This document shows, one piece after another, positions 29,738 to 58,946 of a stretch of 64,000 bases of DNA. A program made the position numbers and the translations under genes. This stretch comes from a phage. The stretch lies in NCBI GenBank assembly GCA_025677605.1, contig GCA_025677605.1_4110.1. One strand, given 5' to 3'. Below the pieces are notes generated by a model. It was given only the letters and a program-made list of their open reading frames with translations, was not told the DNA's origin and made no database searches. How positions within the stretch are numbered: the first letter of the stretch is position 1; every line of letters starts with the position of its first letter.

Positions 29738-30238
29738 TTACGACACAGCGTTTTCGTAATATTCTATTGCTTCCGAGATATTTTGAATTGCCTGTGCCTT
29801 TAATGATTTGTTATAGCGACCAGTAAATGAACCTAAATTCTTAATGAGATCAAGAAATAATGGAAGTACTTCAGATGTATCAGTAAAATCACACTGATAT
29901 AAAGTTCCCATCTGGAACAATTCACCGCCGTCTACGCACAACGTGTTAAAGTCTTTTTGTACTCCCTTTTCTTCATTGAAAATGAAATACGAAGTCCCCA
30001 TGTGGTGAAGATAAACACCATGTTCATCCTGAACGTGGCAGGGGGTAATACACATCGCCGTATTGTCAATATTATTTACTATCGTCAAACGGAGGCTATG
30101 TAATCCGAAAACTACAGTACTATTGAGTGTACTGCATTGTAAATGGTCATTGGTGATAGTAACTTTACTTGTCCTTTTGTCATCGAATGAACGCATAATC
30201 AAAGAAATGCAAAGTTTCATATCAGTTGTTAGTTTCAT
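29738..30238 (-). CDS. family B (FQxS) protein, variant core
   Basis: GGELFQMGTLYQ (Ser replaced by Gly). Confidence 0.6.
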   Translation of the reverse strand: MKLTTDMKLCISLIMRSFDDKRTSKVTITNDHLQCSTLNSTVVFGLHSLRLTIVNNIDNTAMCITPCHVQDEHGVYLHHMGTSYFIFNEEKGVQKDFNTLCVDGGELFQMGTLYQCDFTDTSEVLPLFLDLIKNLGSFTGRYNKSLKAQAIQNISEAIEYYENAVS

Positions 30239-30680
30239 CTAAAATACCCTTAATATGTTTGATTAAATTGACTAGTACTGATTTATCAAATGGATTATTT
30301 AGACCAATACACTCGTACTGGAATAAGTCACCATCAAGAATAACATCTAAATCAATATCTAACTTCTTATTGTTGGTATCAAACATAGTAACATTATCAG
30401 AAGAAACTGTCAACACTTTTTGTGAATTTTTAATCTTATTACTGATATAAACATCAATAAGTAATTTACTGTTCACTGTAACCGTTTCAAAGATGATTTG
30501 ACTAGTACCGTAAATGTATTTTACTGAATTATGTATTCGTGAATATTTTAATTTGTATAAATTAATACCATTGTACTTACATTTGGTATCAATTTTTAAT
30601 TTGCATGATAAGATAGCATTAACTAATTCATTTATATTAGTTAATCTTGTTTCGGCTATCGATAAAGTTGGTAAATTCAT
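30222..30680 (-). CDS. family B-like protein (divergent)
   Basis: DGDLFQYECIGL. Confidence 0.55.
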   Translation of the reverse strand: MNLPTLSIAETRLTNINELVNAILSCKLKIDTKCKYNGINLYKLKYSRIHNSVKYIYGTSQIIFETVTVNSKLLIDVYISNKIKNSQKVLTVSSDNVTMFDTNNKKLDIDLDVILDGDLFQYECIGLNNPFDKSVLVNLIKHIKGILDETNN

Positions 30681-31101
30681 TATGTAATACCTTTAGGCAT
30701 TGTAATGTTTCTGACATGATATTTGAATCGAACTCAATACTATCAAATTTGATAAATGTACTTTGTGTGAAGAAGGTAGATTCCACATCGGTTGAATAAA
30801 ATGATTCATCAAAGAGATTAGTACTGAACATACCAGTTTTCTTTTTAAAGAACATCATGAATTTTGAATTATAACGAATGACGGCTTCATCTTTATTGAT
30901 GATGATACGAGAAATCTGTGTTCTCGTTTGTGTGAGAATATTGATTTGGAAAACATTTTTCTTAACTTCAACAATATCAACCATATAACCATCCCCACTA
31001 TAAAAGTTACTTCTAACTTGGATTGGCTTTGATGTGATATTGATAATTGCGTCTTGAATAAAAAAGTTTACCGTATCAATGTTTCCTAAAATGTCTAACA
31101 T
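30637..31101 (-). CDS. family B-like protein (divergent)
   Basis: ESTFFTQSTFIK (one-residue insertion in the core). Confidence 0.5.
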   Translation of the reverse strand: MLDILGNIDTVNFFIQDAIINITSKPIQVRSNFYSGDGYMVDIVEVKKNVFQINILTQTRTQISRIIINKDEAVIRYNSKFMMFFKKKTGMFSTNLFDESFYSTDVESTFFTQSTFIKFDSIEFDSNIMSETLQCLKVLHNEFTNFIDSRNKIN

Positions 31102-31619
31102 AAATTCTCCTTAATAGCTGTCATATTTACGAGAAATTCTTCAAGTACTTCCTCTGTAATACGCTCTGTATACCAGAATATCACAATATCTTTTGAAAGA
31201 CGAACATTCATAAAAATATCTACTAACTCTCTGTAGTACTCTAGAGTTTCTATATCTTTTAGAATTAGTGAGTACTGAAACATAGATTCTTCAGTTAACT
31301 TAAATTCTGGATATAGTAATTCGTTAAATTCAATTGATTCAATCTGTACTTTTATTCCTTTGAAGTTATTGGTTATACAACCTGAATAATTATTTCGGTA
31401 CAACGCGGCATAATCCATGAATTTTGCTTTGTGATTAAAATCAAGAACAGTTTCACCTTTATATGACAATCGGTGGAACGCCGAGAACCTTGTAATTTCC
31501 CACGGTTGCTTAATATCTAGTTCTGTAATATCAATTTGATTGTGCATAAGATCTGTGAAAATCTCACCAATCTTCAATAGTAACTTAGTACGTACCAGTA
31601 CTGTCATTGAATCAGTCAT
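31095..31619 (-). CDS. family B (FQxS) protein
   Basis: TEESMFQYSLIL. Confidence 0.65.
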   Translation of the reverse strand: MTDSMTVLVRTKLLLKIGEIFTDLMHNQIDITELDIKQPWEITRFSAFHRLSYKGETVLDFNHKAKFMDYAALYRNNYSGCITNNFKGIKVQIESIEFNELLYPEFKLTEESMFQYSLILKDIETLEYYRELVDIFMNVRLSKDIVIFWYTERITEEVLEEFLVNMTAIKENLC

Positions 31620-32038
31620 TATACACCTTCATATTCATCAAGAAAATCTTCGATAATCATTTCAGCTTCATCCATATGCATAGCATCAACTTCAACAATA
31701 CGAACTTTAGATGTATCCCAAATCATATAACTAGGAACATTGTCCGGCTCGTATTCATTTTTGTACTGAACTGCATCGTAACCTTCAGTATCACAATACT
31801 CAATAAGTGATCGCCATTCGTCATCACTACCCATATCCTCACACAGAAGCACGTTATCAACGTCAACTTCTAAGGTATGCAAGTACACCGTGTCAGCATC
31901 AACAACGTTCAGTGGGCTTCTCAGCTTGCGTAACGCAGCCTCAAGAGCACTATGCTTCCCTCCCATATGTAAACCACCATAAGGAATGTAGAAGTTGTCA
32001 ATTTTAACAGTACTTGCATGGTATAGAATCATCATCAA
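31619..32038 (-). CDS. hypothetical acidic protein (139 aa), not family B
   Basis: ORF-track ORF. N-terminus ILYHAST...GGLHMGG. No confident assignment. Confidence 0.6.
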   Translation of the reverse strand: MMMILYHASTVKIDNFYIPYGGLHMGGKHSALEAALRKLRSPLNVVDADTVYLHTLEVDVDNVLLCEDMGSDDEWRSLIEYCDTEGYDAVQYKNEYEPDNVPSYMIWDTSKVRIVEVDAMHMDEAEMIIEDFLDEYEGV

Positions 32039-32634
32039 TCCTCAGTGAGAATACAGTTCAGGTACGAACACAGTTCATCGTAGAAGAGTTTGTCCAGTAC
32101 TGTAAGGTAACAGATACCGTTCTCTTTCATTGCAGCCTGTATCTTATCATAACCATTCACTGTGTCAAGGATTTCTTGATAAGATAATGCATCATCATTA
32201 ACAGTACTACTCTGGAATGCCATTTCTTCTATGTTATCGATGGGTTCCTCATCGGAATTTAAGAAGCCTCCATTTTGATATATAATGTAATCTTCATTCC
32301 ATGATTTAGTGAAACGGAGCAGGATAGGTTCATTAGCGAACATTTCGATATCACCACTTTCAATGTCGTATGAACAATATAGATTACAGTCTTCATCTAT
32401 GAATTCTGCCATAAAGATTGCAGTTCGAGAACCATCATATACATAAACTCCAGTTTTGTTCATCTCAACATCAACTGCCATTCCATTTTTGAATTGCATT
32501 CGAATCGTGATTTTAAGACTTTGGAGTATGTTATTTTCTGTATCTTTAACACTATACAATCCACGATATCGTAACCACAAATCTTTGATAGTACTTAAAG
32601 AATTGATTAAGTCTTCATTGGGATCTTTTTTCAT
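32035..32634 (-). CDS. family B (FQxS) protein
   Basis: IEEMAFQSSTVND. Confidence 0.65.
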   Translation of the reverse strand: MKKDPNEDLINSLSTIKDLWLRYRGLYSVKDTENNILQSLKITIRMQFKNGMAVDVEMNKTGVYVYDGSRTAIFMAEFIDEDCNLYCSYDIESGDIEMFANEPILLRFTKSWNEDYIIYQNGGFLNSDEEPIDNIEEMAFQSSTVNDDALSYQEILDTVNGYDKIQAAMKENGICYLTVLDKLFYDELCSYLNCILTED

Positions 32635-33248
32635 TCAGGTATTACCATATTGTTAATTAGTGTTTCTTTCTTGATGCAATCAGGCTTGATATAAATGAAC
32701 ATCTTTCGTAGACTCTTCACTTTGTACCAATCATTCAGTACTGAAACCATAAGCCATAATTCTTCTGGTGTAGTGGTAACCTCTGTGATTACACCCATCT
32801 GAAACAATGCACCCTTACAATCTTCAAGTGATTTCAGATCAGTCTTATACCCAGATTCAATATCCATTAGTGTTTTAGTTTTGGCATCATATGTGATGAA
32901 CGATTCTTTTAGCGTTTTTCTTCCATCATTTAAGGTTAAAAACACTGGATTACCTGGACTAAACATGCACTCTTCAAATTCAGGAAATAAATCATGTGCT
33001 TCTTCATCATCGTCTTGGGTTAATTCCAGTACTAATTCATCTGTATAGATATTACAAATCCCAACGCTATATCTATTATACAGCGTTGTATATTGTGTGG
33101 GTTTTCCCTTTTTTGATAGCTTGAGTTCACTTTTCGGACCGTACTTGTCAAATAGTGTTTGTTTAGCTCTAATTAAATCTGGTGCAATGTTTAGTAAATC
33201 ACGTAGTGCTTTCTCGTACTTAACATACTCTGTTCTAATGTTAGTCAT
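32631..33248 (-). CDS. family B protein, variant core
   Basis: KGALFQMGVITE (same FQMG variant as 29738..30238). Confidence 0.6.
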   Translation of the reverse strand: MTNIRTEYVKYEKALRDLLNIAPDLIRAKQTLFDKYGPKSELKLSKKGKPTQYTTLYNRYSVGICNIYTDELVLELTQDDDEEAHDLFPEFEECMFSPGNPVFLTLNDGRKTLKESFITYDAKTKTLMDIESGYKTDLKSLEDCKGALFQMGVITEVTTTPEELWLMVSVLNDWYKVKSLRKMFIYIKPDCIKKETLINNMVIPE

Positions 33249-33780
33249 TGTAACCCTCTAAAAAATAATCTAATGTATCAAGTACATCACTATCAAAAAA
33301 ACAATTATTAACTACAACGATACCAGTATTATGTTCTAAATCATAACATTTATCCAGTACATTGATGCATTCATTGTACTCAATGATATCATGAAGAGTA
33401 CTGTGCTGAAAGTGTTCTTCTTCAGTGTACTCACAGTAATTAATATCAACACTGAACGATTGGTCGTTTCTTTTGCACGGATATAATTTAGTAGACTTTC
33501 GTCCAGACCATGTAATTGAATAACAACCAATCGAATTCTGTGGGATTTGTGTACCAGCATGAAGCATAATGTACAGAGCTTGCGAACTGTATGATTCAAC
33601 GTACAAACGGTTCTTATCTGCATTCATAACACAACCATCAATTGACATGCTTAGTGAATGTGACATTCTACTGGCTTTCCTGATGCCACGGCAGAAATTA
33701 ACATAACGCTGACGTAAGCTGTTAACTTTCTCAGGCCATAGCTCAAATTCTTTAGTATTTGATAATGTTGCAATGTGCAT
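33241..33780 (-). CDS. family B (FQxS) protein
   Basis: TEEEHFQHSTLHD. Confidence 0.65.
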   Translation of the reverse strand: MHIATLSNTKEFELWPEKVNSLRQRYVNFCRGIRKASRMSHSLSMSIDGCVMNADKNRLYVESYSSQALYIMLHAGTQIPQNSIGCYSITWSGRKSTKLYPCKRNDQSFSVDINYCEYTEEEHFQHSTLHDIIEYNECINVLDKCYDLEHNTGIVVVNNCFFDSDVLDTLDYFLEGYND

Positions 33781-33782: not shown

Positions 33783-34385
33783 TTATTCCTTAATAACTGG
33801 TATAGCAGACCAAATTCGTTTCATTAGTTCATCTTCTAATACCACATCAGTACTGATCTTTTTGTAGTTCATTGATAATAGAAAATTACATTTCAGTTCT
33901 GATTTTAATTTTTCATAAAGATCAATGTTCATATACATTTCTTCATACGAAGGTAAAGAATGAATTAATGAATTTTGAAAATACCATTCTTCGCTGAAAT
34001 CTTTCACTTCAACACTTTTGATATTCTTAAATGAATCCTTATCAAAATAATATGAAACATCAGAACCATTATAATGTGAAAATGTTTTGAATAATTTTAT
34101 TTCATTTGTTCTACGAAGAATTCTTTCATAGGACAGAATTTTACTATCTTCTAATTCACCATGAAGTATCAGTGAAATATCAAAATCATTTGCAAGTCCA
34201 GCACCAAGGCGTTTGAATGCTAGTGTAATTCGTTGTTCACATGCCGAGATTTCAATCCTGTAAAAATCAGTTGCATACGTTAACATAGAGTATGGGAGAT
34301 GCAACTTTTCATTATTAGAAATACTTTTAGCTAACGTAATGACAGGGTTAAGCATTTTATTAAGAATAGGCATGTCAATGATCAT
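33783..34385 (-). CDS. family B (FQxS) protein
   Basis: SEEWYFQNSLIHS. Confidence 0.65.
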   Translation of the reverse strand: MIIDMPILNKMLNPVITLAKSISNNEKLHLPYSMLTYATDFYRIEISACEQRITLAFKRLGAGLANDFDISLILHGELEDSKILSYERILRRTNEIKLFKTFSHYNGSDVSYYFDKDSFKNIKSVEVKDFSEEWYFQNSLIHSLPSYEEMYMNIDLYEKLKSELKCNFLLSMNYKKISTDVVLEDELMKRIWSAIPVIKE

Positions 34386-34386: not shown

Positions 34387-34890
34387 TCATAATTCTCTTA
34401 GTTTTTTCAATACATAGTGTAGTACTTCATCTTCATTTACATACGATGTGTACATGAGAAATTTGCAACAAGTACTGTTAAGATAGCACATGTAGGTGAA
34501 CATTGCACTATAATTATTCACAGTACTGTTCTGAAATTCAACTTCATCAATTTCACCCAATGATACAGGTCGCATGTTGCAATCTACACCATCAATTTTT
34601 ACAACAGTAGTTCCTGGATGAAAGACTGCGGATTGTGAACCTATGGTGCTTGTATCGAAACTTGGTGCATCATAGATAGGACTATTGCTATCAAAGAGCA
34701 TGAAAATGTCATGGTCTAAACCTCTTTTCTGCTCAAATACAACTCGGATCATACCATCTTTTTGTATTTTAAGAATAATATCTGGAGCCAGTTCGAATCG
34801 ACCATATTGTTCATTGATATATTTTTCTTCAAGAATTTTATGCAATTCCACAAAGTCTTTAGTACTAAAGTGTTCCATCATATCCCTCAA
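34387..34890 (-). CDS. family B (FQxS) protein
   Basis: IDEVEFQNSTVNN. Confidence 0.65.
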   Translation of the reverse strand: MRDMMEHFSTKDFVELHKILEEKYINEQYGRFELAPDIILKIQKDGMIRVVFEQKRGLDHDIFMLFDSNSPIYDAPSFDTSTIGSQSAVFHPGTTVVKIDGVDCNMRPVSLGEIDEVEFQNSTVNNYSAMFTYMCYLNSTCCKFLMYTSYVNEDEVLHYVLKKLREL

Positions 34891-35323
34891 CTAATTTTGT
34901 AATTTCTGCTCTTCGTACATCAATGTCATGAGCAAATGATATGGATGTGAAACCACGTTCCGCTGCAATGGCTCTCAACTGTAGGAGAAGTAATAACGGA
35001 TATATCACTTCATCAGAATACAAAGTACTTAATTGAAATATGGTTGCTTCATCAATCTCAGTACTTAAATCTATACTTTTAATATCAATGATTAACTGTG
35101 TATTGAAATACCATACATTGTCATTGACATAATCTATAGTAGTATTATCCATTACACTATAATCAATGTATCTTTCATTTGACCATAATGTCATCATATC
35201 ATCGCCGTCCGATGGATAGCTTACGTCAAACCATGAACCTGATTTTCGAGCTTTACCATTATCCAGTTCATTGAGGCAGTACTGGATTAACTTTTTCAGT
35301 AATTCGTAATCGTCTTTATTCAT
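34865..35323 (-). CDS. family B (FQxS) protein
   Basis: DEATIFQLSTLYS. Confidence 0.65.
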   Translation of the reverse strand: MNKDDYELLKKLIQYCLNELDNGKARKSGSWFDVSYPSDGDDMMTLWSNERYIDYSVMDNTTIDYVNDNVWYFNTQLIIDIKSIDLSTEIDEATIFQLSTLYSDEVIYPLLLLLQLRAIAAERGFTSISFAHDIDVRRAEITKLVEGYDGTL

Positions 35324-35801
35324 TGCATTTCCAGAATATAGGATGTTTGTTAAGTGTTTGAAATATCATATCAAATGTAAATTTGTAATAAGAATAAACA
35401 CCGAAATTAATTGATATAGAATTTAAATTAGTTTCATGCACCATAGCACTATGTATCAGAACTGCATTTCTATGAAACTCATTATCAAGGCTCAATTCAG
35501 CCATAAAATCATCTAAAGTTCTGTCGCCGTTCTTTTTCTCGTATATGATTTCACCACTTGGTTCAATGAATACTGAACTTTCCCTTGATAGGATCATGAT
35601 TCGTTTCTCAATGACATTTTGAGATTCTTGACAGTTGAGTTCACAAAATGTCCATGAGCCACAGAACACAGCGATAATGTCGTTGTTTTTCACGAAGTTA
35701 AAGGGAATGCCATCAATCATTATCTGTACTTCGTGCACAAATTTATGAGAATACTTCTCAAGAATTTTACAAAATTTAATAACGTCTGCTGGATTTAACA
35801 T
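35316..35801 (-). CDS. family B-like protein (degenerate core)
   Basis: SLDNEFHRNAVLIHS at the equivalent position. Confidence 0.5.
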   Translation of the reverse strand: MLNPADVIKFCKILEKYSHKFVHEVQIMIDGIPFNFVKNNDIIAVFCGSWTFCELNCQESQNVIEKRIMILSRESSVFIEPSGEIIYEKKNGDRTLDDFMAELSLDNEFHRNAVLIHSAMVHETNLNSISINFGVYSYYKFTFDMIFQTLNKHPIFWKCNE

Positions 35802-36355
35802 TGGATTGCCTTAATATGTTCAATCATTGCCTTGGAGTTAGTACTCATGTACTCAAATATATCATCATTCATGAGTTCTGTCAAGTTCAATTCAACCGTA
35901 CATCCATCTGGTAAGTTCTTCTGACAGAACGGAGCCAGTACTGCACCGTACAGTACATACGGATCATCAATAATTAAACTCTTCTGGAAGCAATCACAAT
36001 CCATATCTTCTTCATTATCGAAGTAAGTACTGATATCTATTGCAGTACTATCTTTACACATCAACTCTACATCACCTTTTTTAATTACTACACGCTTTGT
36101 CTTGGTATTGCGTAATCGGGTGTATTCTTTTATGTGTCGTTGTTGTGTATTGATTTCAATGATATCTTTGTGGTTGTACGTTATTGTGAAGTGCATATCA
36201 TTATTCAAATCACCACTCAGAAAAAAATTAAGATCTCTTAGTACAGTGTGATTGACTTTAATGTATTCACCTTCACGAATTAAACTCAGTGCAGCTACAC
36301 AATCTTCAATAAACTTCTCAAGGAACTTCCCTCTATAGTAAAGACTATATTTCAT
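35795..36355 (-). CDS. family B (FQxS) protein
   Basis: MDCDCFQKSLIID. Confidence 0.65.
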   Translation of the reverse strand: MKYSLYYRGKFLEKFIEDCVAALSLIREGEYIKVNHTVLRDLNFFLSGDLNNDMHFTITYNHKDIIEINTQQRHIKEYTRLRNTKTKRVVIKKGDVELMCKDSTAIDISTYFDNEEDMDCDCFQKSLIIDDPYVLYGAVLAPFCQKNLPDGCTVELNLTELMNDDIFEYMSTNSKAMIEHIKAIQC

Positions 36356-36930
36356 GAGAACTCCCCAGTATTGTTGATAAGACTGTCCAGACCTTCATGA
36401 ATTCTTTTAAATTCACTACGTTTAAAACGATGAACAATTTGTTGTAATGGACAGTATTTGTCTTTCTTATCCAGTTCATGATTGACGATTGTACTGAAAA
36501 GTAATAAATCCAATTCGTTAGTACTGTACATAGTACTTAACTGGAATAGTTCTTCTTCTATAGTACTACTGTTAAGATTAATCTTTGGAATTTTTTTACC
36601 TGAAATAACAATCCCTGCAAATTCACTTGTCCCTGGAACTTCAGCATTTCCTCCAATAATATAATCGTAGTTAATGTACCCATCGTTATTGGTTAAATCT
36701 TCTTTATTGTACTTAATTATCAGAAAGACACGTAGATCATTCATCGAAACTACTGCATGATCATACATACCTTCCTGGTCTTTAGTAATCGCCAAACGCA
36801 TATATGGGAGATTAAATGTCTTTTTAGTTTTACATAAATCACTATTAAGAATAGCATTCACTTTCAAAACCATCTTAGTGTAATATTGATACTCTTCGGA
36901 CATGTAATTATAAAGATTTGAGAAAGGCAT
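36352..36930 (-). CDS. family B (FQxS) protein
   Basis: IEEELFQLSTMYS. GGAGGA SD before the ATG at 36930. Confidence 0.65.
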   Translation of the reverse strand: MPFSNLYNYMSEEYQYYTKMVLKVNAILNSDLCKTKKTFNLPYMRLAITKDQEGMYDHAVVSMNDLRVFLIIKYNKEDLTNNDGYINYDYIIGGNAEVPGTSEFAGIVISGKKIPKINLNSSTIEEELFQLSTMYSTNELDLLLFSTIVNHELDKKDKYCPLQQIVHRFKRSEFKRIHEGLDSLINNTGEFS

Positions 36931-40109: not shown

Positions 40110-40116
40110 CCTATAA

Positions 40117-50749: not shown

Positions 50750-51075
50750 CAGTACTCCAGATTAATAGAATAAATGCAAGAACGAACTATTTGGTCCTTG
50801 TTATCTCTGTAGTACTTTTGTAATGCAAGGTACATAAAGAAATCGATTTCTTTATCCCATACTAATGATTCCTGAAATATAAAACTTTCATAGTTCTCCA
50901 TGTATTCACATTCGATGTAATTAGGAAGCTTATCTGTTTTGGATACGTACTCAATATTACATTCATTGAAATCACGAATAATCAATATAGGTGTTTTATT
51001 CAATGTAGTAAAAAAGCACGTATAAGTAAAACCACTTCCCATTGTACTTGAAGAAACATATATTTTAGTATTCAT
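50749..51075 (-). CDS. family B (FQxS) protein, short form
   Basis: YESFIFQESLVWD. 108 aa. Confidence 0.65.
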   Translation of the reverse strand: MNTKIYVSSSTMGSGFTYTCFFTTLNKTPILIIRDFNECNIEYVSKTDKLPNYIECEYMENYESFIFQESLVWDKEIDFFMYLALQKYYRDNKDQIVRSCIYSINLEY

Positions 51076-51430: not shown

Positions 51431-51787
51431 CTATAGATTGAAATAGTACTGAACAGTCTTGTGCTTATCTTGAGTTAATTCTATCATGCACTTCGCAGAG
51501 TATTCTTTCATGATATTCTGAATACCAATAACTTCATCTAGTGTACAAATATATTTCTTATCGAACACTAATGACTCCTGAAATAGAGTCGCCTCATCCA
51601 TTTCTGTATAGTCCAGTAGAGGTTCATTAACACCACCACCCACTCGACCGTAATCAATAAAAGAAAATCCATTTGAGGTGTACTTAATATATTGGTCCAA
51701 CGAATGATTGGTATCACCCTTAACGAGATTACAATAGAACTCAACCTTTTTGTAGAAAAAACTGTGAATAGCAAAATCATTGCTCAT
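51431..51787 (-). CDS. family B (FQxS) protein, short form
   Basis: DEATLFQESLVFD. 118 aa. Confidence 0.65.
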   Translation of the reverse strand: MSNDFAIHSFFYKKVEFYCNLVKGDTNHSLDQYIKYTSNGFSFIDYGRVGGGVNEPLLDYTEMDEATLFQESLVFDKKYICTLDEVIGIQNIMKEYSAKCMIELTQDKHKTVQYYFNL

Positions 51788-52000
51788 AATAACCTCTACT
51801 ATAATTAATAAGGTAAACTACAATATAAGGAGCACGTTCGGCGGCGGGGTATTTTTTTGTTTAAGGAAACATGAACTGTACTCTGAAAAACACAATATAA
51901 AATTTTATATTAAACATATACCTTAACATGTTTTTCAGCGAAAATTTTTTTGACCCCCCAAAACGCCCCCAAAAACAAGCCTATATTTATCATTTTAAAA

Positions 52001-52567
52001 TTACCCCTTTTCCGCGACCTTATCAAACACGTACTGTATGTACTGATTCAATGCAATGAGATCGATATCTCTGTCAAATCTCAACGTTAACTTCTCTGTC
52101 AACTCCCCGAAGGTATCATAATAATGCTTAACAAAATAACGATATCGTATTGAATTATAATCGTGCAATGTACTGTACTGAAACACTACATCAGGACTAT
52201 ATGGCATCAAATCAATAAGCTCACTTACTTTTAATTTCTCATTTTCGCCATTATTTTTAACTGTTATATATTCATTTGAACTGAACCATGCACATGATAC
52301 ATCTGAACAAATTGATGTTGTACTGTAAAATCTATCTGTACTCACAAATAATACACTATGTGATTTGTTGGATTTTCTTTCGTAAATCGATAAATCCGAC
52401 ATAAGCGTAATGATTGGTTCGTGTCGAAATTTATTATGCTGGTACGTTTCCTGAAACGCATTCGGATTTTTGTAAATCCTATCTACAATTAAATACAACC
52501 CCTTGATGTATTCTAAATCATCTTCTATCGCTTTGCATGTACTTTCTATGTCCTGAAGGTCCAGCAT
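52001..52567 (-). CDS. family B (FQxS) protein
   Basis: SPDVVFQYSTLHD. Confidence 0.65.
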   Translation of the reverse strand: MLDLQDIESTCKAIEDDLEYIKGLYLIVDRIYKNPNAFQETYQHNKFRHEPIITLMSDLSIYERKSNKSHSVLFVSTDRFYSTTSICSDVSCAWFSSNEYITVKNNGENEKLKVSELIDLMPYSPDVVFQYSTLHDYNSIRYRYFVKHYYDTFGELTEKLTLRFDRDIDLIALNQYIQYVFDKVAEKG

Positions 52568-53103
52568 TACTCCCCCTTAATCTCTTTGAGATCTTTTACT
52601 AACCTATCGTACCACGTTAAAGCTAAAAAGAAATTCGTTTTCACATTAGCACGTAATACATTATATACTTGCTGCACCTGTAAAACATAAGGATCTTGTA
52701 CTAAGGACTCCTGAAAATATTCTTCAGGACTCAGGATGTTAGGATTCAAGGTTGCAATATCAACGTGCTTTGTTAAACCAAAAAAGGTTTCTTCCTCTCT
52801 CTTGCTCATATCCAAATAACGAATCCAATTCACTGGAGCGAACTCTTCAGATGCTGATGTAGCCGATGTAATAGCATTGAACAAAAGACAATACTCTAAC
52901 TGCATCTTCTCACCTACAGCGTGCATTACCGTATCTCTCCTGTAATACACAATAGAGGGATACTTTTCAATATCGCTCTTAGGCTCAAGCCATCCTTCCT
53001 TGTGCTTAGGATAGATGTGGTCAAAATCCCCAGCCTCAAACGCCTGTACGATTTTTACTAAATTGTCAGCGAACTCGTACTCAAAATGTTTGTGCTGGAT
53101 CAT
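52567..53103 (-). CDS. family B (FQxS) protein
   Basis: SPEEYFQESLVQD. C-terminal NFFLALTWY. Confidence 0.65.
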   Translation of the reverse strand: MIQHKHFEYEFADNLVKIVQAFEAGDFDHIYPKHKEGWLEPKSDIEKYPSIVYYRRDTVMHAVGEKMQLEYCLLFNAITSATSASEEFAPVNWIRYLDMSKREEETFFGLTKHVDIATLNPNILSPEEYFQESLVQDPYVLQVQQVYNVLRANVKTNFFLALTWYDRLVKDLKEIKGE

Positions 53104-53164: not shown

Positions 53165-53192
53165 ATTATAACACAATCTCTTTTAACTTCAA
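53165..53192 (-). promoter_or_regulatory. possible sigma70-type promoter TTGAAG-N16-TATAAT
   Basis: Read on the minus strand. It overlaps the 3' end of 53166..53804. The -35 is weaker than at the other sites. Confidence 0.35.
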
Positions 53193-53804
53193 AATGAAAT
53201 CTTCATATACTTTTATCTGAAAATGCGGACTCTGTGCACTGAAACTAAACCCAGGTTCAATCAATTTCTTGTACTCATTTGCATATTTGCACAACTTCAG
53301 GATTTCGGTAGGGTCCACCATATCCTTCTGTACTAAGGACATTTGAAAAAGCACTTCCTCTACACCCTCGTACTCTTGACCTGCAATGTAACATATGTCA
53401 TCGTCTAACGATAATGATATGAACGTCTTTGTACTTATTACATTACCATCTTTTGAAACACCATAATCTGCAACTGAATCCACAAAGGAATCCGGCTTAG
53501 ATGAACCTGCTATGTCGCAAATGTACTTGTCAATGTATGTGATGTTATTGTTGTTATCGAATATACCAAATGCTAATGACGTGTCAAATACTTCCCTGAA
53601 ACCAATTCTGTCACTACCGATAACTAAAACTAATTTACCACAGGATGCACTGTATCTGGATGCGGAATCAAATGGAATCTCCAATTTTGAATTCTCAGGG
53701 AAAATAGCATTGAACTTCTTTAGCATTTCAAACATATAAGGAACATGAGGCTCCATGAACTTCATCACCTCATACGGTGAAGCATTTCTGGGAAAATTAT
53801 GCAT
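53166..53804 (-). CDS. family B (FQxS) protein
   Basis: VEEVLFQMSLVQK. Confidence 0.65.
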   Translation of the reverse strand: MHNFPRNASPYEVMKFMEPHVPYMFEMLKKFNAIFPENSKLEIPFDSASRYSASCGKLVLVIGSDRIGFREVFDTSLAFGIFDNNNNITYIDKYICDIAGSSKPDSFVDSVADYGVSKDGNVISTKTFISLSLDDDICYIAGQEYEGVEEVLFQMSLVQKDMVDPTEILKLCKYANEYKKLIEPGFSFSAQSPHFQIKVYEDFILKLKEIVL

Positions 53805-54330
53805 ATGTACTTACCCTTAAATTTTCGAAATCCCATACATCACTGATTGTACCATTGTGCCTGTAATCATAATATTGTACTAATACATTATACAATAACT
53901 TCAACGATACAAATTCATGATTCCACGGGGCTTTATTCTCATGAACACATTTAGAGATATAAGGTATCATATATAAAGCAACCATCTCTAATGGTTCATG
54001 TACACATTGCTTTTGAAAATATTCTTCTTCTTGCATACAATGCTCAGGAATAATTAGATCACCATGTTTACCGAAGACATATGAACCTACTGTGTATTTT
54101 TTCACATCGCAAGCGAACCATATTGTACTATCCGAAACAAATGGAATGATACCATTATTGTTTGCAATGTACATCATATGGTAAGAGCTATTTGACTTGT
54201 TAAATACCTCTATACTTTTAATATTACTACAAATCGCGTATTCAATACAATCAATAATCTTATCTTTAAATACACCAATTTCATTGAATGTCATTGCTTT
54301 CTGTACTTGCGATGTTTGCGATGTTTGCAT
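53797..54330 (-). CDS. family B-like protein (start trimmed)
   Basis: QEEEYFQKQCVHE. The ATG at 54330 (MQTSQTSQVQK...) is preceded by AAGGAG. The ORF-track ATG at 54366 lies upstream of the predicted transcription start. Confidence 0.6.
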   Translation of the reverse strand: MQTSQTSQVQKAMTFNEIGVFKDKIIDCIEYAICSNIKSIEVFNKSNSSYHMMYIANNNGIIPFVSDSTIWFACDVKKYTVGSYVFGKHGDLIIPEHCMQEEEYFQKQCVHEPLEMVALYMIPYISKCVHENKAPWNHEFVSLKLLYNVLVQYYDYRHNGTISDVWDFENLRVSTYA

Positions 54331-54356
54331 GGGGTTCTCCTTAAAAATGTTCAGGT

Positions 54357-54385
54357 ATATTAGCACCGATTCGGTACTGTGTCAA
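54357..54385 (-). promoter_or_regulatory. sigma70-type promoter TTGACA-N17-TAATAT
   Basis: Read on the minus strand in the gap between 54411..54908 and 53797..54330. Confidence 0.6.
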
Positions 54386-54393
54386 TACCAAAA

Positions 54394-54424
54394 CGAAAAA
54401 AGCCCATATCTTACGATACAGGCT
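54394..54424 (-). terminator. probable intrinsic terminator overlapping the stop of 54411..54908
   Basis: Minus strand reads AGCC-TG-TATC-GTAA-GATA-TG-GGCT (4+4 bp with a 2-nt internal mismatch) followed by TTTTTTCG. Confidence 0.5.
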
Positions 54425-54908
54425 CGGTTGGGTAAAAGGACTCATATACATTTTTCATTTGCTGGAAATAAAAATATACATGATTCTTAAGCACACCATT
54501 CTCATAAAGCATCTTGTATATTGCGTAGAAAAAGATATCAATTTCTTCATGTATTGTACTGTACTGGAACCACAACTCCGGTGTCAAGGGTTCTGGACTG
54601 TATTTGATTTCCAACAAAGCATCATCCATTGGCTTATCACGTCCTGGATACATATACCAAAGGTCATCTCTTTCCAGACGAAGATCATCTTCATCAGGAT
54701 ATACATTGTCAGGAGCAAAATTTAAAAAACTAAAAAGCACTTTACCTGAATTTGATTCTTCTAACTGATTGTTAATATAATCATATTTGTGATTTATTGA
54801 AGCATATCCTTTTCCTTCATATGCTTTCATTATATTGTATACACCTTCAATGTACTTAACGTACTGTACAGCACTCTCTAAACTAAATTCCACTTTACAT
54901 TTTTGCAT
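54411..54908 (-). CDS. family B (FQxS) protein
   Basis: TPELWFQYSTIHE. Confidence 0.65.
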   Translation of the reverse strand: MQKCKVEFSLESAVQYVKYIEGVYNIMKAYEGKGYASINHKYDYINNQLEESNSGKVLFSFLNFAPDNVYPDEDDLRLERDDLWYMYPGRDKPMDDALLEIKYSPEPLTPELWFQYSTIHEEIDIFFYAIYKMLYENGVLKNHVYFYFQQMKNVYESFYPTEPVS

Positions 54909-55246
54909 AATAAAATAATCTCAACTAAAGCAAGAACTGTATTGAATTCCACTATACTTGTAATTCCCTGAAGGTACATGTACTTTGCTATTACATATTT
55001 CTGTACTAAATTATCATTCTTCTTGAATTCATCAAACGCATCATTACAACGTGTCATGTATTCTGTACTCAAAAATATCTTATGCATCTCTAATGCACTC
55101 TGATAATATGCATACAACTCACGAATATCTATACTACGTAAATCACGTTGTTCGTACTTGTGATACGGAATAGCTTCAATTTCAATATTATAAAACCATT
55201 CTGTTAACTTATTAATATCAAATGTATTATTGTACTTCGAGGTCAT
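54878..55246 (-). CDS. hypothetical protein (122 aa; start trimmed)
   Basis: The ATG at 55246 (MTSKYNNTFD...) is preceded by AAGGAA. No family motif. Confidence 0.55.
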   Translation of the reverse strand: MTSKYNNTFDINKLTEWFYNIEIEAIPYHKYEQRDLRSIDIRELYAYYQSALEMHKIFLSTEYMTRCNDAFDEFKKNDNLVQKYVIAKYMYLQGITSIVEFNTVLALVEIILLCKNVKWNLV

Positions 55247-55535
55247 AATATTTCCTTTCCCATTCGGATACATGGGCATTAAAATTCATAACAGCTTTCT
55301 GTATCTTTTTTAATAATAACACATCATATCCACCTGTGTCAATCACTAATTGCTGTTGAAACAATTCTTCGTCGGATAATGTATTGAAATCTACAAAATA
55401 ATCTGTGACTTCGTTATCATTTAAATGTGCCATGTACCAACCTGAACTACATGAATAAATCAAATTCCAACCGTCTTCATCGCCTTCTAATTCAACATAA
55501 ATCATATCTTTTGTATAAAGCATTCTATACTTCAT
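55227..55535 (-). CDS. family B-like protein, short form
   Basis: SDEELFQQQLVID. 102 aa. Confidence 0.6.
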   Translation of the reverse strand: MKYRMLYTKDMIYVELEGDEDGWNLIYSCSSGWYMAHLNDNEVTDYFVDFNTLSDEELFQQQLVIDTGGYDVLLLKKIQKAVMNFNAHVSEWERKYYDLEVQ

Positions 55536-56040
55536 AACTATATCCTTGCATCAAAATATCATAAACTGCTTGAATGTCAGGAACTTTTATATAAAATTTA
55601 AAACCCTTAATTAAAGGATTCGCGTACAATGAACTGAATAACTTTAGATAATGCATTTGACGAGGACTATATAATAACGATTTCTGAAATAATTCAGCAC
55701 TACAATCTGTACTAATATCAATTAAATCAATTCGTTCTTCTACTTCATCATCTTGTTTCAAATCATAAAAGAAATAATCGTTTGTGTTTACCCACAAATA
55801 CCCTTCTTTATTTTCGTATACAACAGGAGATGTTTGTACCGGATTGGCTTGGGTAAATGCTGCAATACAAACGTTAACATTCCCTGCATTATTTGCATTG
55901 TGAAACATAAACGATAATTTACCATGCCTATCTTCTATGCGTAATTCATCTATATCAATGTACTTATGTATAGGATGATTATTTTTGAGCATAAGCATTA
56001 TTGTACTAATCTTGTGCGTTAATAATTCAATTTCATTCAT
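55525..56040 (-). CDS. family B (FQxS) protein
   Basis: CSAELFQKSLLYS. Confidence 0.65.
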   Translation of the reverse strand: MNEIELLTHKISTIMLMLKNNHPIHKYIDIDELRIEDRHGKLSFMFHNANNAGNVNVCIAAFTQANPVQTSPVVYENKEGYLWVNTNDYFFYDLKQDDEVEERIDLIDISTDCSAELFQKSLLYSPRQMHYLKLFSSLYANPLIKGFKFYIKVPDIQAVYDILMQGYSYEV

Positions 56041-56046: not shown

Positions 56047-56430
56047 TTACCTATAGCATTTGAGCACTGTAACCAATCCCTCTGCATTCTTGAAATGCAT
56101 TAAAGACAATGAACTATCAACGTACTGCAATGATATAATTACATCCTGTTCTGTGTGTTTGAATAAAAATTCCTGTACCGAATTCGTACCATAATACATG
56201 TACTTCGTTGCTTCAATCTGCAAATAAGGCACTTCTGTATTGTGTAAAAAGATATTGATTATTTCATTATTCTGTAATCTGCAATCAAATTTGTATGTTT
56301 CATATAACGGTACATCCGATGATGCCTGTACTGCCTGTACTGCCTGTGCTGCATGAGCGGTGTTTATAAATGATAAAAACACAAATGTTAAAATGAATAT
56401 GATTTTATTGAACATGTTTTGTTTCCTCAA
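56047..56430 (-). CDS. secreted/periplasmic protein with Sec-type signal peptide
   Basis: MRKQNMFNKIIFILTFVFLSFINTAHA-AQAVQAVQAS: a basic n-region, a hydrophobic core and an AHA-A cleavage-type site, followed by a short AQAVQ repeat. Confidence 0.6.
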   Translation of the reverse strand: MRKQNMFNKIIFILTFVFLSFINTAHAAQAVQAVQASSDVPLYETYKFDCRLQNNEIINIFLHNTEVPYLQIEATKYMYYGTNSVQEFLFKHTEQDVIISLQYVDSSLSLMHFKNAEGLVTVLKCYR

Positions 56431-56624: not shown

Positions 56625-57013
56625 TTAATAGGGTATTCCGTTTCATTCACTACATACGACATAATCCATCCGTAATGGATAGGATGATATTTGTCTGAAT
56701 CAGGAATAAAATATAAAGCTGTACTGGGATTATAACTGAAGAAATCCCTCTCGTCAAATGTTAATCTGGCTAACTTAATTTTCCTTGGAATTGCATGAGG
56801 ACGAACTGCATTCTTTACACAGAATATACCATCTTTGTATTTTGGTTCGATAACACCCAATGCACTCTGGATTAACTCCTGAAAGACTAAATTGATTTGT
56901 GCAAATGAATCCTTGTTGTTATGCATTTCGTGCCATAAATCTCGTCTTGCATTTAACATCATTATTACTGGTCTAAGATCCTGTACTATTGTTAGATTCT
57001 GCATTGTATTCAT
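56612..57013 (-). CDS. hypothetical protein (133 aa)
   Basis: ORF-track ORF. Confidence 0.55.
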   Translation of the reverse strand: MNTMQNLTIVQDLRPVIMMLNARRDLWHEMHNNKDSFAQINLVFQELIQSALGVIEPKYKDGIFCVKNAVRPHAIPRKIKLARLTFDERDFFSYNPSTALYFIPDSDKYHPIHYGWIMSYVVNETEYPIKWER

Positions 57014-57230
57014 TTATCTCATTCTGTAACTTAACAACCAAAATTTGCGTATGAATTTTTCGCTCAAGGTGCTTGATAAATTTCTGTACCATTTCTTCTT
57101 GTACTGATGTACCAAGATAAAATAACATATTAAATTCTGATAATCGCAGAGCAAAATCTTCATCGCCCCCCTGTAAACAAAAATCCCTGTACTTCGATGC
57201 GTACAAATGATGGTTTACATTTTTGTACAT
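56973..57230 (-). CDS. family C (LGTNYQ-like) small protein
   Basis: FYLGTSVQEEMVQKFIKHL. Confidence 0.55.
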   Translation of the reverse strand: MYKNVNHHLYASKYRDFCLQGGDEDFALRLSEFNMLFYLGTSVQEEMVQKFIKHLERKIHTQILVVKLQNEINEYNAESNNSTGS

Positions 57231-57433
57231 TTAGACTCCTTTGGTGTGCATACTATCTCTGTTCGTAAAGCCCTTATGTATGCATCAACGAATTGTGGCT
57301 GTGCTCTCGTTCCTAGATAAAATAATAAATCGAACTCTGCCATTTTAACATTAAAAGGATCTGAATCTACATTTCGAATAAACTGTCTGTACTTCAATTC
57401 ATATCCGTTAGGCATCTTCTTGTATACTATCAT
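57215..57433 (-). CDS. family C (LGTNYQ-like) small protein
   Basis: FYLGTRAQPQFVDAYIRAL. Confidence 0.55.
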   Translation of the reverse strand: MIVYKKMPNGYELKYRQFIRNVDSDPFNVKMAEFDLLFYLGTRAQPQFVDAYIRALRTEIVCTPKESKCTKM

Positions 57434-57743
57434 ATTCTATACAATCACCTCTTTTAATCGAATCCCAAACTTCTTTCATCCTCTTCTGTAAACTGCACAT
57501 AATATCTATATCAAACATATAAGGGTCATGAATTAGACTGTACTGAAATAATTCATCTTCCTGCATAAGAGAAAGATCCTGAAGCAACTCGTACTTACCT
57601 AAACTCCTGGGACTCAAATAAGCAAAATATTCTTTACCGTCCTCAAAAACATAATGTACTTCATGATTCATGTACTTCTTGTAATTCTCATGCGTATAAG
57701 CAAATATACAACCGGAATTAATTCGGTGAATGTTGAATTTCAT
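57408..57743 (-). CDS. family B (FQxS) protein, short form
   Basis: QEDELFQYSLIHD. 111 aa. Confidence 0.65.
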   Translation of the reverse strand: MKFNIHRINSGCIFAYTHENYKKYMNHEVHYVFEDGKEYFAYLSPRSLGKYELLQDLSLMQEDELFQYSLIHDPYMFDIDIMCSLQKRMKEVWDSIKRGDCIEYDSIQEDA

Positions 57744-57752: not shown

Positions 57753-58079
57753 TTATACGTAAATTGGATGAATATTTTGAAGGAAATGCTTAGAAATATT
57801 CATACATGATATCATCTGCCTTTGTACTTCCTTCATCTCTTTGTATGTCAACCCAAAAGAATCATCGTATACTAACATGTACTGAAACTCTTCTTCTTCA
57901 GAGATATCAACTAGATTCGGTACTGCTATCGTATTTTCATATGATTTGATACCTTCTACCCAATAGAAACAATTATCAACTTTATTGTACTCAAATATCT
58001 TAACCCCAGGCCCACCCTGTACATTGGTCAACGCAATGAAACATGTATTCGCTCTTTTTATACAATTGATCTTACGCAT
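57753..58079 (-). CDS. family B-like protein, short form (start trimmed)
   Basis: SEEEEFQYMLVYD. The ATG at 58079 (MRKINCIKR...) has GGAG upstream and avoids overlap with 58087..58332. Confidence 0.6.
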   Translation of the reverse strand: MRKINCIKRANTCFIALTNVQGGPGVKIFEYNKVDNCFYWVEGIKSYENTIAVPNLVDISEEEEFQYMLVYDDSFGLTYKEMKEVQRQMISCMNISKHFLQNIHPIYV

Positions 58080-58086
58080 TATCGCA

Positions 58087-58332
58087 TTATCTCCATCTCT
58101 CTCCGTCATCGCAAGAGTACTGGTACGTTGTCGTTAGGGTAGGAATCATGTTCGTAATCGGCATATTATTCACAATAACCGTTACGGGCATCATAACCGT
58201 CTCTTTTCTACTCTGTCCTGTCTTTGTGCAATTCATCTTGTGCATTTCATCTGAATCCAGATACGCTAATACAAACGGTGCAATCCCAAGAACAATACAC
58301 AAGACGATAAGGAAATTTAAAAATTTTAACAT
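58087..58332 (-). CDS. small membrane-anchored protein (81 aa)
   Basis: N-terminal TM helix LNFLIVLCIVLGIAPFVLAYL. Confidence 0.55.
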   Translation of the reverse strand: MLKFLNFLIVLCIVLGIAPFVLAYLDSDEMHKMNCTKTGQSRKETVMMPVTVIVNNMPITNMIPTLTTTYQYSCDDGERWR

Positions 58333-58361
58333 AATCTGTACCCTATGATTAACGTTAGTGT

Positions 58362-58390
58362 ACTATAGCACTACAATAGAGTACTGTCAA
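58362..58390 (-). promoter_or_regulatory. sigma70-type promoter TTGACA-N17-TATAGT
   Basis: Read on the minus strand. The -35 lies in the last codons of 58371..58601 and the -10 in the 38-nt gap. Confidence 0.55.
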
Positions 58391-58601
58391 CTGCTTTGTT
58401 CTCTATTATACTCATTAAACCCCAAATTAGATAACGAACACTATCAGCTTGATAGTTAGTACCTACTGTGCATTTTAAAATTAACTCATCTTTCAGTACT
58501 GCACGTTCTTCTTGGGATATAGGAAGAGAATTTATTTGTTTTATTTGTGGTTGTAAAGTATTAATAAGCTTGCAGTACTCTTCGAATGATAATCTTTTCA
58601 T
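58371..58601 (-). CDS. family C (LGTNYQ) small protein
   Basis: CTVGTNYQADSVRYLIWGL. Confidence 0.6.
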   Translation of the reverse strand: MKRLSFEEYCKLINTLQPQIKQINSLPISQEERAVLKDELILKCTVGTNYQADSVRYLIWGLMSIIENKAVDSTLL

Positions 58602-58604
58602 GGT

Positions 58605-58946
58605 TCAGTACTCAATAATGTGTTCTTCATAAGCACTATTAGGCTCCTGTTTAGTTTCTTTTATTAGTACTATCATCTTATGTGCCAATGGCATAGGAAA
58701 CTCTAAATCCCATACTAATGATTCTTGAAAGTATTCTTCTTCAGATAAAGTACTTAAATCTTCAATGTCAATGTGTTCGTACATGTTATATTTGTAATCA
58801 GCAAAAGATATATAAAAACCTCTTGTAGAATCGTAAGTAATCGTGAATGGCTTACCTTTGTAGTCCATTACATCTTTACATAGACTGCATTTGATATATG
58901 TACTTGCAAATGATTTATAAACCTTAAGTTGAATATTAGTTTTCAT
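58605..58946 (-). CDS. family B (FQxS) protein, short form
   Basis: SEEEYFQESLVWD. 113 aa. It sits between family C genes. Confidence 0.65.
   Translation of the reverse strand: MKTNIQLKVYKSFASTYIKCSLCKDVMDYKGKPFTITYDSTRGFYISFADYKYNMYEHIDIEDLSTLSEEEYFQESLVWDLEFPMPLAHKMIVLIKETKQEPNSAYEEHIIEY

Follow-up and report, generated by a model that had tools for sequence, protein, structure and literature searches.

A tandem array in a RaK2-like jumbo coliphage and a family of at least 42 divergent genes for small acidic proteins

Tandem arrays of paralogous genes have been noticed in several jumbo phages: Hua et al. (2017; PMC5646251) mention them in passing for 121Q and phage G, the products of RaK2 are reported to include "nearly 10% paralogues" (PMC3622015), and phage G carries ~35 copies of a zinc ribbon, a number called unprecedented (Iyer et al. 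2021, PMC7824862). Here we analyze a 64-kb stretch of phage DNA (the window, whose coordinates are used throughout), in which a tandem block between 29.7 and 58.9 kb (the array), together with one outlier, carries at least 42 divergent members of a single family of small acidic proteins. Like the arrays of 121Q (a member of the same genus), phage G, and RaK2, it comprises tens of small genes of unknown function that arose by tandem duplication; the ~35 zinc ribbons of phage G form a smaller set. The earlier jumbo-phage papers gave their arrays one sentence each, without family definition, motif, fold, spread, or evolutionary analysis. The comparative review of jumbo phages (PMC7824862) does not mention the family, and the genome papers on Sharanji, JP4, and fEgEco12 do not discuss it. 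The remark on 121Q may mean this family or an adjacent array of open reading frames (ORFs) of ~70 amino acids (aa), but neither set is "very similar" (median identity, 16% and 25%, respectively). The family is thus undescribed as such, while the phenomenon of tandem arrays is already known in the 121Q literature.

The source phage is an Asteriusvirus, i.e., a RaK2-like jumbo coliphage, with 98.7 to 99% identity to Escherichia phage A4. Positions 40000 to 48000 are 98.7% identical over their full length to A4 (ON286972; 355,528 bp; genus Asteriusvirus), and positions 1 to 12000 are 99.0% identical to the same record. In 121Q, PBECO4, phAPEC6, Sharanji, and other Asteriusvirus genomes, only ~0.4 to 0.5 kb of the 8 kb of array DNA finds a match; for the first 12 kb of the window, about half the length does. 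The minus strand carries all genes of the window, and the A4 annotation of this region reads "hypothetical protein" nearly throughout.

An earlier note on this stretch had proposed an expansion of about 48 paralogs sharing a short core around F-Q-x-S, and our statistics bear out one very large paralog family. In a regular-expression scan, 36 minus-strand ORFs from 31.1 to 58.9 kb contained FQxS[TLIVAM][VILMF] or a looser form of it (the strict form occurs in 33 minus-strand ORFs), as did 17521-18099 and one spurious plus-strand ORF; in those 36 the motif lies at 0.51 to 0.76 of protein length. Pairwise BLASTP at 1e-3 joins just 14 ORFs and was inadequate on its own for defining the family. Instead, we seeded a hidden Markov model (HMM) on these 14 ORFs, iterated it over the 147 minus-strand ORFs of the window, and scored decoys alongside. 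The HMM converged at 41 ORFs, and reversed or shuffled decoys yielded no match even at E ≤ 10. In leave-one-out tests all 41 passed, with 15.5 to 65 bits (E of 1.3e-4 to 7e-20) compared to 13 bits for the best of 882 decoys. A 189-sequence model that included database homologs added 30222-30680 (13.8 bits; best decoy, 8.3), so that the supported set comprises 41 genes within 30.2 to 58.9 kb plus the outlier 16835-17524.

The ORFs starting at 29738, 32631, 36908, 46411, 39501, 30637, and 17521 are motif-only candidates, with a correctly placed, degenerate motif (strict in 17521-18099) and a subthreshold HMM score; the 121Q positional orthologs of 36908 and 29738 do match the family HMM. Because these six or seven ORFs add to the 41 supported genes of the interval and to 16835-17524, the figure of about 48 was reasonable. 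The claim that nearly every gene of the interval belongs was too strong: supported members are 41 of its 63 ORFs and cover ~69% of its bases (19.6 kb for 40 members, plus 30222-30680). Of the two outliers claimed at 16835 to 18099, the first is supported, and the second has only the motif, with a score within the decoy range. Likewise, the 45% quoted for the family is a share of the 64-kb window; supported members total ~20 kb, or ~5.6% of the 355-kb genome.

Relatedness beyond the short motif holds for the larger part of the set. After masking of the 16-column motif block, E < 1e-3 was still reached by 16 of 41 members, and 26 of 41 scored above all 410 shuffled decoys in leave-one-out tests; because masking drops the HMM support of the other ~15 (mainly short forms and genes at 31 to 38 kb), these rest on the motif block together with position, size, and synteny. 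Median pairwise identity among members is 16% and exceeds 30% in just 4 of 820 pairs. The members and candidates are as follows, with the motif region of each; E values are from the leave-one-out HMM unless stated, and (-) denotes the minus strand.

16835-17524 (-): outlying member, 229 aa, TEEEHFQLMMMR; E=1.3e-4, 15.5 bits, weakest supported
17521-18099 (-): motif-only candidate, 192 aa, LPEHFQMSTLF; strict motif at 0.72; HMM 7.8-10 bits, within decoys
29738-30238 (-): motif-only candidate, 166 aa, GGELFQMGTLY; HMM 10.1 bits; 121Q positional ortholog a weak match, E=0.005
30222-30680 (-): member, 152 aa, DGDLFQYECIG; 189-sequence HMM, E=5.4e-4
31095-31619 (-): member, 174 aa, TEESMFQYSLIL; E=3.1e-7
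32035-32634 (-): member, 199 aa, IEEMAFQSSTVN; E=3.9e-5
32631-33248 (-): motif-only candidate, 205 aa, KGALFQMGVIT; motif correctly placed, HMM nonsignificant
33241-33780 (-): member, 179 aa, TEEEHFQHSTLH; E=2.3e-8
33783-34385 (-): member, 200 aa, SEEWYFQNSLIH; E=4e-8
34387-34890 (-): member, 167 aa (start approximate), IDEVEFQNSTVN; E=4.9e-5
34865-35323 (-): member, 152 aa, DEATIFQLSTLY; E=5.9e-9
35795-36355 (-): member, 186 aa, MDCDCFQKSLII; E=2.7e-6
36352-36930 (-): member, 192 aa, IEEELFQLSTMY; E=1.1e-10
36908-37480 (-): motif-only candidate, 190 aa, REAYLFQLSLLP; HMM 8-9.8 bits; 121Q positional ortholog, E=3.9e-4
37464-38075 (-): member, 203 aa (start approximate), LEEQNFQSSVTH; E=1e-4, 15.8 bits
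40132-40683 (-): member, 183 aa, DDGVLFQYSTLY; E=4.6e-8
40680-41312 (-): member, 210 aa, SEESFFQNSLIY; E=9.6e-11
41317-41931 (-): member, 204 aa, LDETLFQYSLIH; E=6.6e-12
41906-42412 (-): member, 168 aa, TDENYFQNSLIY; the only basic one (isoelectric point [pI] 9.3); E=1.8e-13
42422-42892 (-): member, 156 aa, NEEMYFQNSLLY; E=2.5e-12
42889-43371 (-): member, 160 aa, TEETHFQLSLIY; E=5e-16
43359-43790 (-): member, 143 aa, PPDELFQYSLVC; E=3.7e-5
43790-44128 (-): member, short form, 112 aa, SEEELFQMSTAF; E=1.1e-7
44112-44615 (-): member, 167 aa, SEEDYFQFSTTM; E=4.5e-15; lone weak PADLOC match to ThsB (TIR-like)
44615-45112 (-): member, 165 aa, DECEYFQYCTIY; E=2.2e-15
45169-45705 (-): member, 178 aa, TEELFFQMSTVD; E=1.2e-14
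45708-46046 (-): member, short form, 112 aa, SEEELFQESLVW; E=1.2e-7
46046-46459 (-): member, 137 aa (start approximate), SEEEFFQESTVW; E=2e-8; 91% identity to 121Q ortholog
46411-47061 (-): motif-only candidate, 216 aa (start approximate), TDVAFQQDLIM; degenerate motif without HMM support
46958-47506 (-): member, 182 aa, NEESVFQLSTVH; E=1.1e-11
48137-48706 (-): member, 189 aa (start approximate), FEEQMFQLSCTD; E=3.1e-6
48743-49189 (-): member, 148 aa, NEEGYFQLSTVL; E=1.4e-11
49195-49650 (-): member, 151 aa, SEEYYFQQSTVY; in a recent tandem triplet; E=3.1e-18
49650-50093 (-): member, 147 aa, TEEYYFQQSLIF; in the triplet; E=2.7e-15; adjoined by A4-specific copy A4_355
50095-50577 (-): member, 160 aa, SEEYYFQQSTVY; modeled long form; E=7.2e-20
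50749-51075 (-): member, short form, 108 aa, YESFIFQESLVW; E=7.1e-6
51431-51787 (-): member, short form, 118 aa, DEATLFQESLVF; E=1.9e-9
52001-52567 (-): member, 188 aa, SPDVVFQYSTLH; E=1.2e-9
52567-53103 (-): member, 178 aa, SPEEYFQESLVQ; E=4.1e-13
53166-53804 (-): member, 212 aa, VEEVLFQMSLVQ; E=1.2e-11
53797-54366 (-): member, 189 aa (GTG start, approximate), QEEEYFQKQCVH; E=2.6e-9; ortholog adjoins A4-specific copy A4_345
54411-54908 (-): member, 165 aa, TPELWFQYSTIH; E=1.3e-7
55227-55535 (-): member, short form, 102 aa, SDEELFQQQLVI; E=2.2e-11
55525-56040 (-): member, 171 aa, CSAELFQKSLLY; E=2.2e-10
57408-57743 (-): member, short form, 111 aa, QEDELFQYSLIH; E=1e-9
57753-58109 (-): member, short form, 118 aa, SEEEEFQYMLVY; E=4.4e-8
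58605-58946 (-): member, short form, 113 aa, SEEEYFQESLVW; modeled short form; E=6.1e-10

The outlying 16835-17524 sits outside the array, in a conserved region close to the RNA ligase gene. The candidate 46411-47061 pairs by BLASTP with 29224-29697, and the recent tandem triplet that includes 49195-49650 and 49650-50093 is joined by DNA repeat families D1, D3, and D8. The A4 ortholog of 52567-53103 (A4_348, L001 25036-25572) is labeled "DNA ligase", a label for which Pfam gives no support and which is probably an annotation error in the public record; the true DNA ligase is the 472-aa gene at 4773-6191.

The array evolves by birth and death: unequal homologous recombination at conserved gene junctions adds and removes whole genes, and distinct paralog lineages are retained in the long term under purifying selection. 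Two further members are present in A4, compared over 61 kb of its genome, and missing from the window: A4_355 (…SEEFYFQQNTIY…) and A4_345 (…EDEYFQYSTVH…). The alignments of A4 and the window break at gene junctions, with a 23-bp overlap at 50071-50093, where A4_355 lies beside 49650-50093; such breakpoints and overlap are the signature of unequal homologous recombination between tandem paralogs. Compared to A4, 39 family genes show 116 synonymous and 105 nonsynonymous changes, a ratio of nonsynonymous to synonymous rates (dN/dS) of 0.21 (0.12 for the other 74 window genes); the family genes are therefore constrained and functional.

Over longer distances the family diverges faster than its surroundings. 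Reciprocal best hits to 121Q have a median identity of 36% for the family (n = 32; 10 members have none) versus 69% for other genes (n = 60; Mann-Whitney P = 6e-4). Since the recent substitution rate is only modestly raised, we infer that this deep positional divergence implies differential paralog loss or allele exchange in addition to rapid point mutation. Of the 42 members, 39 have their closest relative in another genome (121Q, 31; RaK2, 8), and 22 resemble a RaK2 protein more than they do any paralog of their own phage; thus, much of the repertoire predates the split of the two genera and has been retained since.

The array thereby shows the features of viral multigene families that expand by tandem duplication ("accordions"), namely, a single-block arrangement and copy-number change at homologous breakpoints. 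The likeness to multigene families of large eukaryotic DNA viruses, suggested earlier, is borne out by copy number that differs at 98.7% identity and by fast divergence. Like MGF110/360/505 of African swine fever virus (ASFV) and the poxvirus ankyrin and kelch families ("genomic accordions"), the array consists of tandem diverged paralogs with gain and loss of whole copies between close isolates, divergence faster than that of the rest of the genome, and a nonstructural, probably early location. Sequence and fold show no kinship with those families, and the host here is bacterial: the likeness is one of mode of evolution, not of membership.

As to spread, a profile search of 1.84 billion cluster representatives, of the kind the earlier note had called for, returned 173 clusters at E ≤ 1e-3, all of 65 to 229 aa; of the 150 clusters listed, ~110 have <50% identity to any window member. 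Named sources among the matches listed are Asteriusvirus coliphages (often deposited as "E. coli" contigs of ~350 kb), Klebsiella phage RaK2, and Erwinia and Serratia phages of the genus Eneladusvirus. To these, tblastn added Yersinia phages, Cronobacter GAP32, and Pectobacterium CBB; tblastn with the HMM consensus gave no match. Syntenic arrays are present in 121Q (42 HMM matches), RaK2 (33 to 35 copies, with the consensus (S/T)EEgyFQYSTlY), and Serratia BF (6 HMM matches plus 2 motif-only ORFs). Judged by these searches, the family is confined to RaK2-like phages.

Members range from 102 to 229 aa and have in common a near-invariant block, EE-x-x-F-Q-x-S-(T/L)-(V/I/L). The distance from FQ to the C terminus is nearly constant (41 to 65 aa in most; 41 to 70 overall), the N-terminal part varies from 58 to 152 aa, and N termini are unconserved across members. 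Outside the motif, the family profile conserves Tyr47 (77%), Tyr60, Tyr63, and Phe125, so that the N-terminal two-thirds, described at first as hypervariable, still carries conserved aromatic residues (the three tyrosines). The N- and C-terminal motifs attributed to the long forms in general mark one subclade; the strict C-terminal (F/Y)(Y/F)xD(L) was present in 9 of the 33 long forms. Members tend to be acidic (median pI, 4.87; median net charge, -10; 71% of members below pI 5), with the one basic member as an exception. No Pfam transmembrane or secretion domain was found among members, although no dedicated search for signal peptides or membrane segments was made.

The motif is written with varied codons (TTT 31 and TTC 15; CAG 31 and CAA 15; six serine codons), and the variation at F, Q, and S means that the constraint acts on the protein. 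A DNA-level cause of the motif repeats was rejected on the same grounds, there being only a mild CAG excess (31/46), and the DNA repeats detected in the array are the coding motif itself. Copies with "S-T" are mostly encoded by AGT-ACT and those with "S-L" mostly by TCA-TTA, which points to old sublineages. The pattern E-x-x-Y-F-Q-x-S resembles the TEV/NIa protease site (E-x-x-Y-x-Q followed by S/G), a likeness that we set aside because the P3 residue is unconserved and the block lies within a confidently folded helix. The "L-S/T-E-E" that precedes FQ is also loosely like the T4-type L/I-x-E protease sites.

AlphaFold2 models point to a common scaffold. The model of the long form 50095-50577 (160 aa; mean predicted local distance difference test [pLDDT], 74.7; predicted template modeling score [pTM], 0.72) begins with a helix, continues with short strands and with three helices that surround and follow the motif, and ends in a strand and a final helix; its motif-region helices have pLDDT values of 91 to 97, and residues 41 to 64 are of low confidence. 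That of the short form 58605-58946 (113 aa; pLDDT, 77.4; pTM, 0.66) consists of five strands, a first helix that contains FQES, a second helix, and a closing strand. In the predicted common scaffold, two or three helices would pack against an antiparallel beta-sheet, and a strand at the C terminus would close the fold; the conserved block would lie in the helical part that follows the sheet. Foldseek against BFVD, again as the earlier note had advised, matched only uncharacterized proteins of RaK2-like phages (121Q, RaK2, GAP32, Serratia BF, Yersinia fHe-Yen9-03, SP27, and CBB), with template modeling (TM) scores up to 0.82, and, at 13 to 19% identity, connected the model with remote members from RaK2, GAP32, and Serratia BF.

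In these comparisons the family matched no described domain family, as first supposed: Pfam-A, NCBIfam, PADLOC, and PDB sequences gave no match shared across it. In the Pfam-A/NCBIfam scan of 41 members, no profile was matched at its gathering score, and no entry was matched by more than one member (best strays, E = 0.0011 for DUF4467 and 0.004); the PADLOC scan yielded stray single-member matches; and the profile search of PDB sequences returned zero matches. One PADLOC match, to ThsB1 (TIR-like), covers residues 49 to 125 of 44112-44615 (19.6 bits; E = 1.6e-4), but it is confined to this single member, its nearest paralogs being unmatched, and we treat it as probable chance. In PHROGs, members match at least 30 separate groups of unknown function, including phrog_12674 (14 members), phrog_9317 (E = 6.7e-61), phrog_13866, phrog_34017, and phrog_15629 (best E values, 6.7e-61 to 2.7e-146); that database thus splits the family over at least 30 unannotated groups and does not record its unity.

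T4-like hypervariable early regions and Ocr/ArdA offer another comparison, since they and the array have in common small acidic proteins (probably early ones in the array), plastic regions of a phage with a T4-like core, and sigma-70-type promoters (predicted in the array). The likeness does not extend to identity: ArdA (PF07275) matched 1 of 41 members, below threshold (E = 0.074), and the charge of the family is only moderate, where an ArdA/Ocr-type DNA mimic would be expected to be extremely negative.

Several promoter-like elements lie in the few intergenic gaps of the array.

40081-40109 (-): sigma-70-like promoter, 11/12 consensus positions, in the gap upstream of 39501-40049, after a terminator-like hairpin at 40122-40143
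45144-45172 (-): putative sigma-70 promoter that fits the consensus at 12/12 positions and has an extended -10 TG, in the gap upstream of 44615-45112; a consensus match only
48705-48732 (-): sigma-70-like promoter, 11/12, in the gap upstream of 48137-48706
54400-54425 (-): terminator-like hairpin followed by TTGACA, in the gap 54367-54410
58362-58390 (-): sigma-70-like site in an intergenic gap, among the ten matches of at least 11/12

All ten sigma-70 matches scoring 11/12 or better fall on the coding strand, with none on the opposite one. Several of the ten occupy those gaps, some after terminator-like hairpins. The T4-type late promoter core octamer TATAAATA is absent from both strands of the 64 kb (12.06 ± 3.27 expected from shuffles), which suggests selection against late promoters across the region. 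In the related phage CBB, RpoD-type promoters are reported to cluster in the equivalent region, an extended series of short hypothetical genes proposed to be early and to serve host takeover, and a TATAAATA-like motif lies upstream of structural genes (PMC5259590); the RaK2 virion proteins identified by mass spectrometry all map to two clusters other than the array (PMC3622015). The strand bias, the absence of TATAAATA, and the mapping of the RaK2 virion proteins support non-late, nonstructural genes. The early-type promoters first reported are accordingly plausible as markers of early or at least non-late expression, although sigma-70-like sites as a whole are no more numerous than in shuffles.

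Taken as a whole, the observations are best explained by a RaK2-like tandem family that evolves by birth and death and provides an early intracellular repertoire of binding proteins, a reading that we hold tentatively and rate at somewhat below an even chance. Support is good for the family and for its mode of evolution; the function we only infer, from context, from acidity, from the fact that distinct paralogs have long been retained, and from the parallel with multigene families in large DNA viruses. The host RNA polymerase would read the array early or midway in infection, as several operons, and the products would act within the infected cell as binding proteins on one scaffold, each paralog engaging a different host factor, defense protein, or protein of a competitor phage. 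The conserved core could be a folding nucleus, or it could dock on one shared partner, e.g., a phage or host protease or polymerase.

Several points weigh against this repertoire. Neither the databases nor the literature searched yielded evidence for any function, and in Pfam, NCBIfam, and PADLOC the only matches to known defense or antidefense families are single-member strays. Overall dN/dS is well below 1 and gives no sign of positive selection at the gene level. For about 15 members, the EE-x-x-F-Q-x-S-(T/L)-(V/I/L) block is the sole sequence link to the family. Confidence in the structural models is moderate, with a shallow alignment (41 paralogs) and a long-form middle at pLDDT < 50, and the proposed timing of expression leans on consensus motifs and the analogy with phage CBB. 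A bolder proposal, which we regard as possible but doubtful, is that the array would be the bacterial-virus counterpart of the ASFV and poxvirus families: early effectors with an unseen fold, each neutralizing a different host defense or takeover target, and continually reshaped by unequal crossing-over.

Instead of many targets, the products could serve one phage-internal job many times over, as regulators or adaptors for a Clp-like protease, the host RNA polymerase, or the replication apparatus. A single near-invariant block despite so little identity, the constant length from motif to C terminus, and the ClpP-like proteases encoded in the same genome region would suit such adaptors. We nevertheless consider them unlikely, and equally so the more specific idea that the FQxS core is a docking surface while the variable part picks the substrate or promoter: the motif region has the highest confidence in the model, which agrees no less well with a structural core than with a docking site on the surface.

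The "ratchet" idea of Hua et al. (2017; PMC5646251) leads to another possibility, that the array is genomic filler, i.e., tandem-duplicated dispensable DNA held by an oversized headful capsid and having little or no specific function. Purifying selection is clear from the dN/dS of 0.21, all reading frames are intact, the motif is retained through synonymous change, paralog lineages are conserved between genera (22 of 42 nearer to RaK2), and promoters and terminators are organized on the coding strand. These facts make filler distinctly unlikely, even if copy number that differs between near-identical phages, very fast divergence, and a dN/dS somewhat above the 0.12 of other genes are what it would predict.

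We judge it very improbable that the members are not one family, with a real core clade of ~26 and some 15 others that share a short convergent or recombined motif. The masking results would fit such a division; but the strict motif occurs in 33 minus-strand ORFs against <0.1 expected by chance (a rough estimate from residue frequencies), always 41 to 70 residues before the C terminus, in genes of similar size and orientation within a single block. In addition, serine codon class follows sublineages, as under descent, and Foldseek ties the model to RaK2, GAP32, and Serratia BF members. Least probable of all are packaged internal head or "inner body" proteins injected with the DNA, like phiKZ inner-body or T4-like internal proteins: the bubblegram pattern of 121Q agrees with an inner body (PMC5646251), the small size, acidity, and hypervariability of the proteins would suit one, and the L/I-x-E likeness fits, but the RaK2 virion proteins detected by mass spectrometry all lie in two other clusters (PMC3622015), no array gene in 121Q or Serratia BF is annotated as structural although nearby genes are, TATAAATA is missing and sigma-70 promoters are present, N termini are unconserved, and the conserved block is internal and predicted to be folded, so that it is no N-terminal targeting peptide.

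Among the members lie several genes of other kinds. A 139-aa, very acidic protein (31619-32038, minus strand; net charge, -21; N terminus LYHASTVKIDNFYIPYGGLHMGG) stands inside the array in every clade and is far more conserved than its neighbors (92% identity to 121Q and 47% to Serratia BF_0050); searches of Pfam and of PDB sequences returned nothing similar. The 470-aa product of 38092-39504 (minus strand) has a hydrophobic N-terminal half and a signaling domain of methyl-accepting chemotaxis proteins (MCPs) (PF00015; E = 6e-37). This gene occurs in the A4 lineage only and is missing at the syntenic site of 121Q; its next matches are enterobacterial MCPs at ~35% identity, and such a chemoreceptor-like gene is unusual for a lytic jumbo phage. 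A 127-aa nonfamily ORF (56047-56430, minus strand) among cytoplasmic-looking members begins with a hydrophobic stretch ending in AHAAQA, which looks like a signal peptide, so its product may be exported.

A second tandem family, of 24 ORFs of ~65 to 96 aa forming a BLASTP cluster, occupies 58949-63315 as well as 47716-48140, 56973-57433, and 58371-58601; its median pairwise identity is 25%, it has an L-G-T-x-x-Q block, and it is syntenic in 121Q, where orthologs are 35 to 92% identical. At lower window coordinates than the array, five minus-strand ORFs of 87 to 128 aa at 20244-22040, joined by BLASTP, make up a small paralog cluster. At 29061-29078 the window lacks ~660 bp that are present in A4 (L001 421-1079, A4_397/398), including a putative HNH endonuclease gene; the extra A4 DNA is probably a mobile homing-endonuclease insertion. 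The largest intergenic gap within the array (51788-52000; 213 bp) has G-runs and C-runs atypical for a 33% GC genome, matches nothing in Rfam, and has a fold energy like that of shuffles (z = -0.72). Rfam and tRNA scans of the whole window were empty.

By scale, the array is among the largest paralog expansions documented in any phage, and the family is conserved and unequally amplified across a RaK2-like group whose hosts are Escherichia, Salmonella, Klebsiella, Serratia, Erwinia, Yersinia, Cronobacter, and Pectobacterium; several RaK2-like phages are under development as therapeutics. The array would offer a concrete, tractable "accordion" case for the debate on jumbo genome size; a dispensable array would instead favor the capsid-ratchet view of how genomes grow. 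Should the paralogs be host-interaction modules, each genome would hold ~40 natural variants on one scaffold, a library for host targets and counterdefense, and, if the effector reading is true, they would constitute a new antidefense or host-takeover superfamily specific to RaK2-like jumbo phages.

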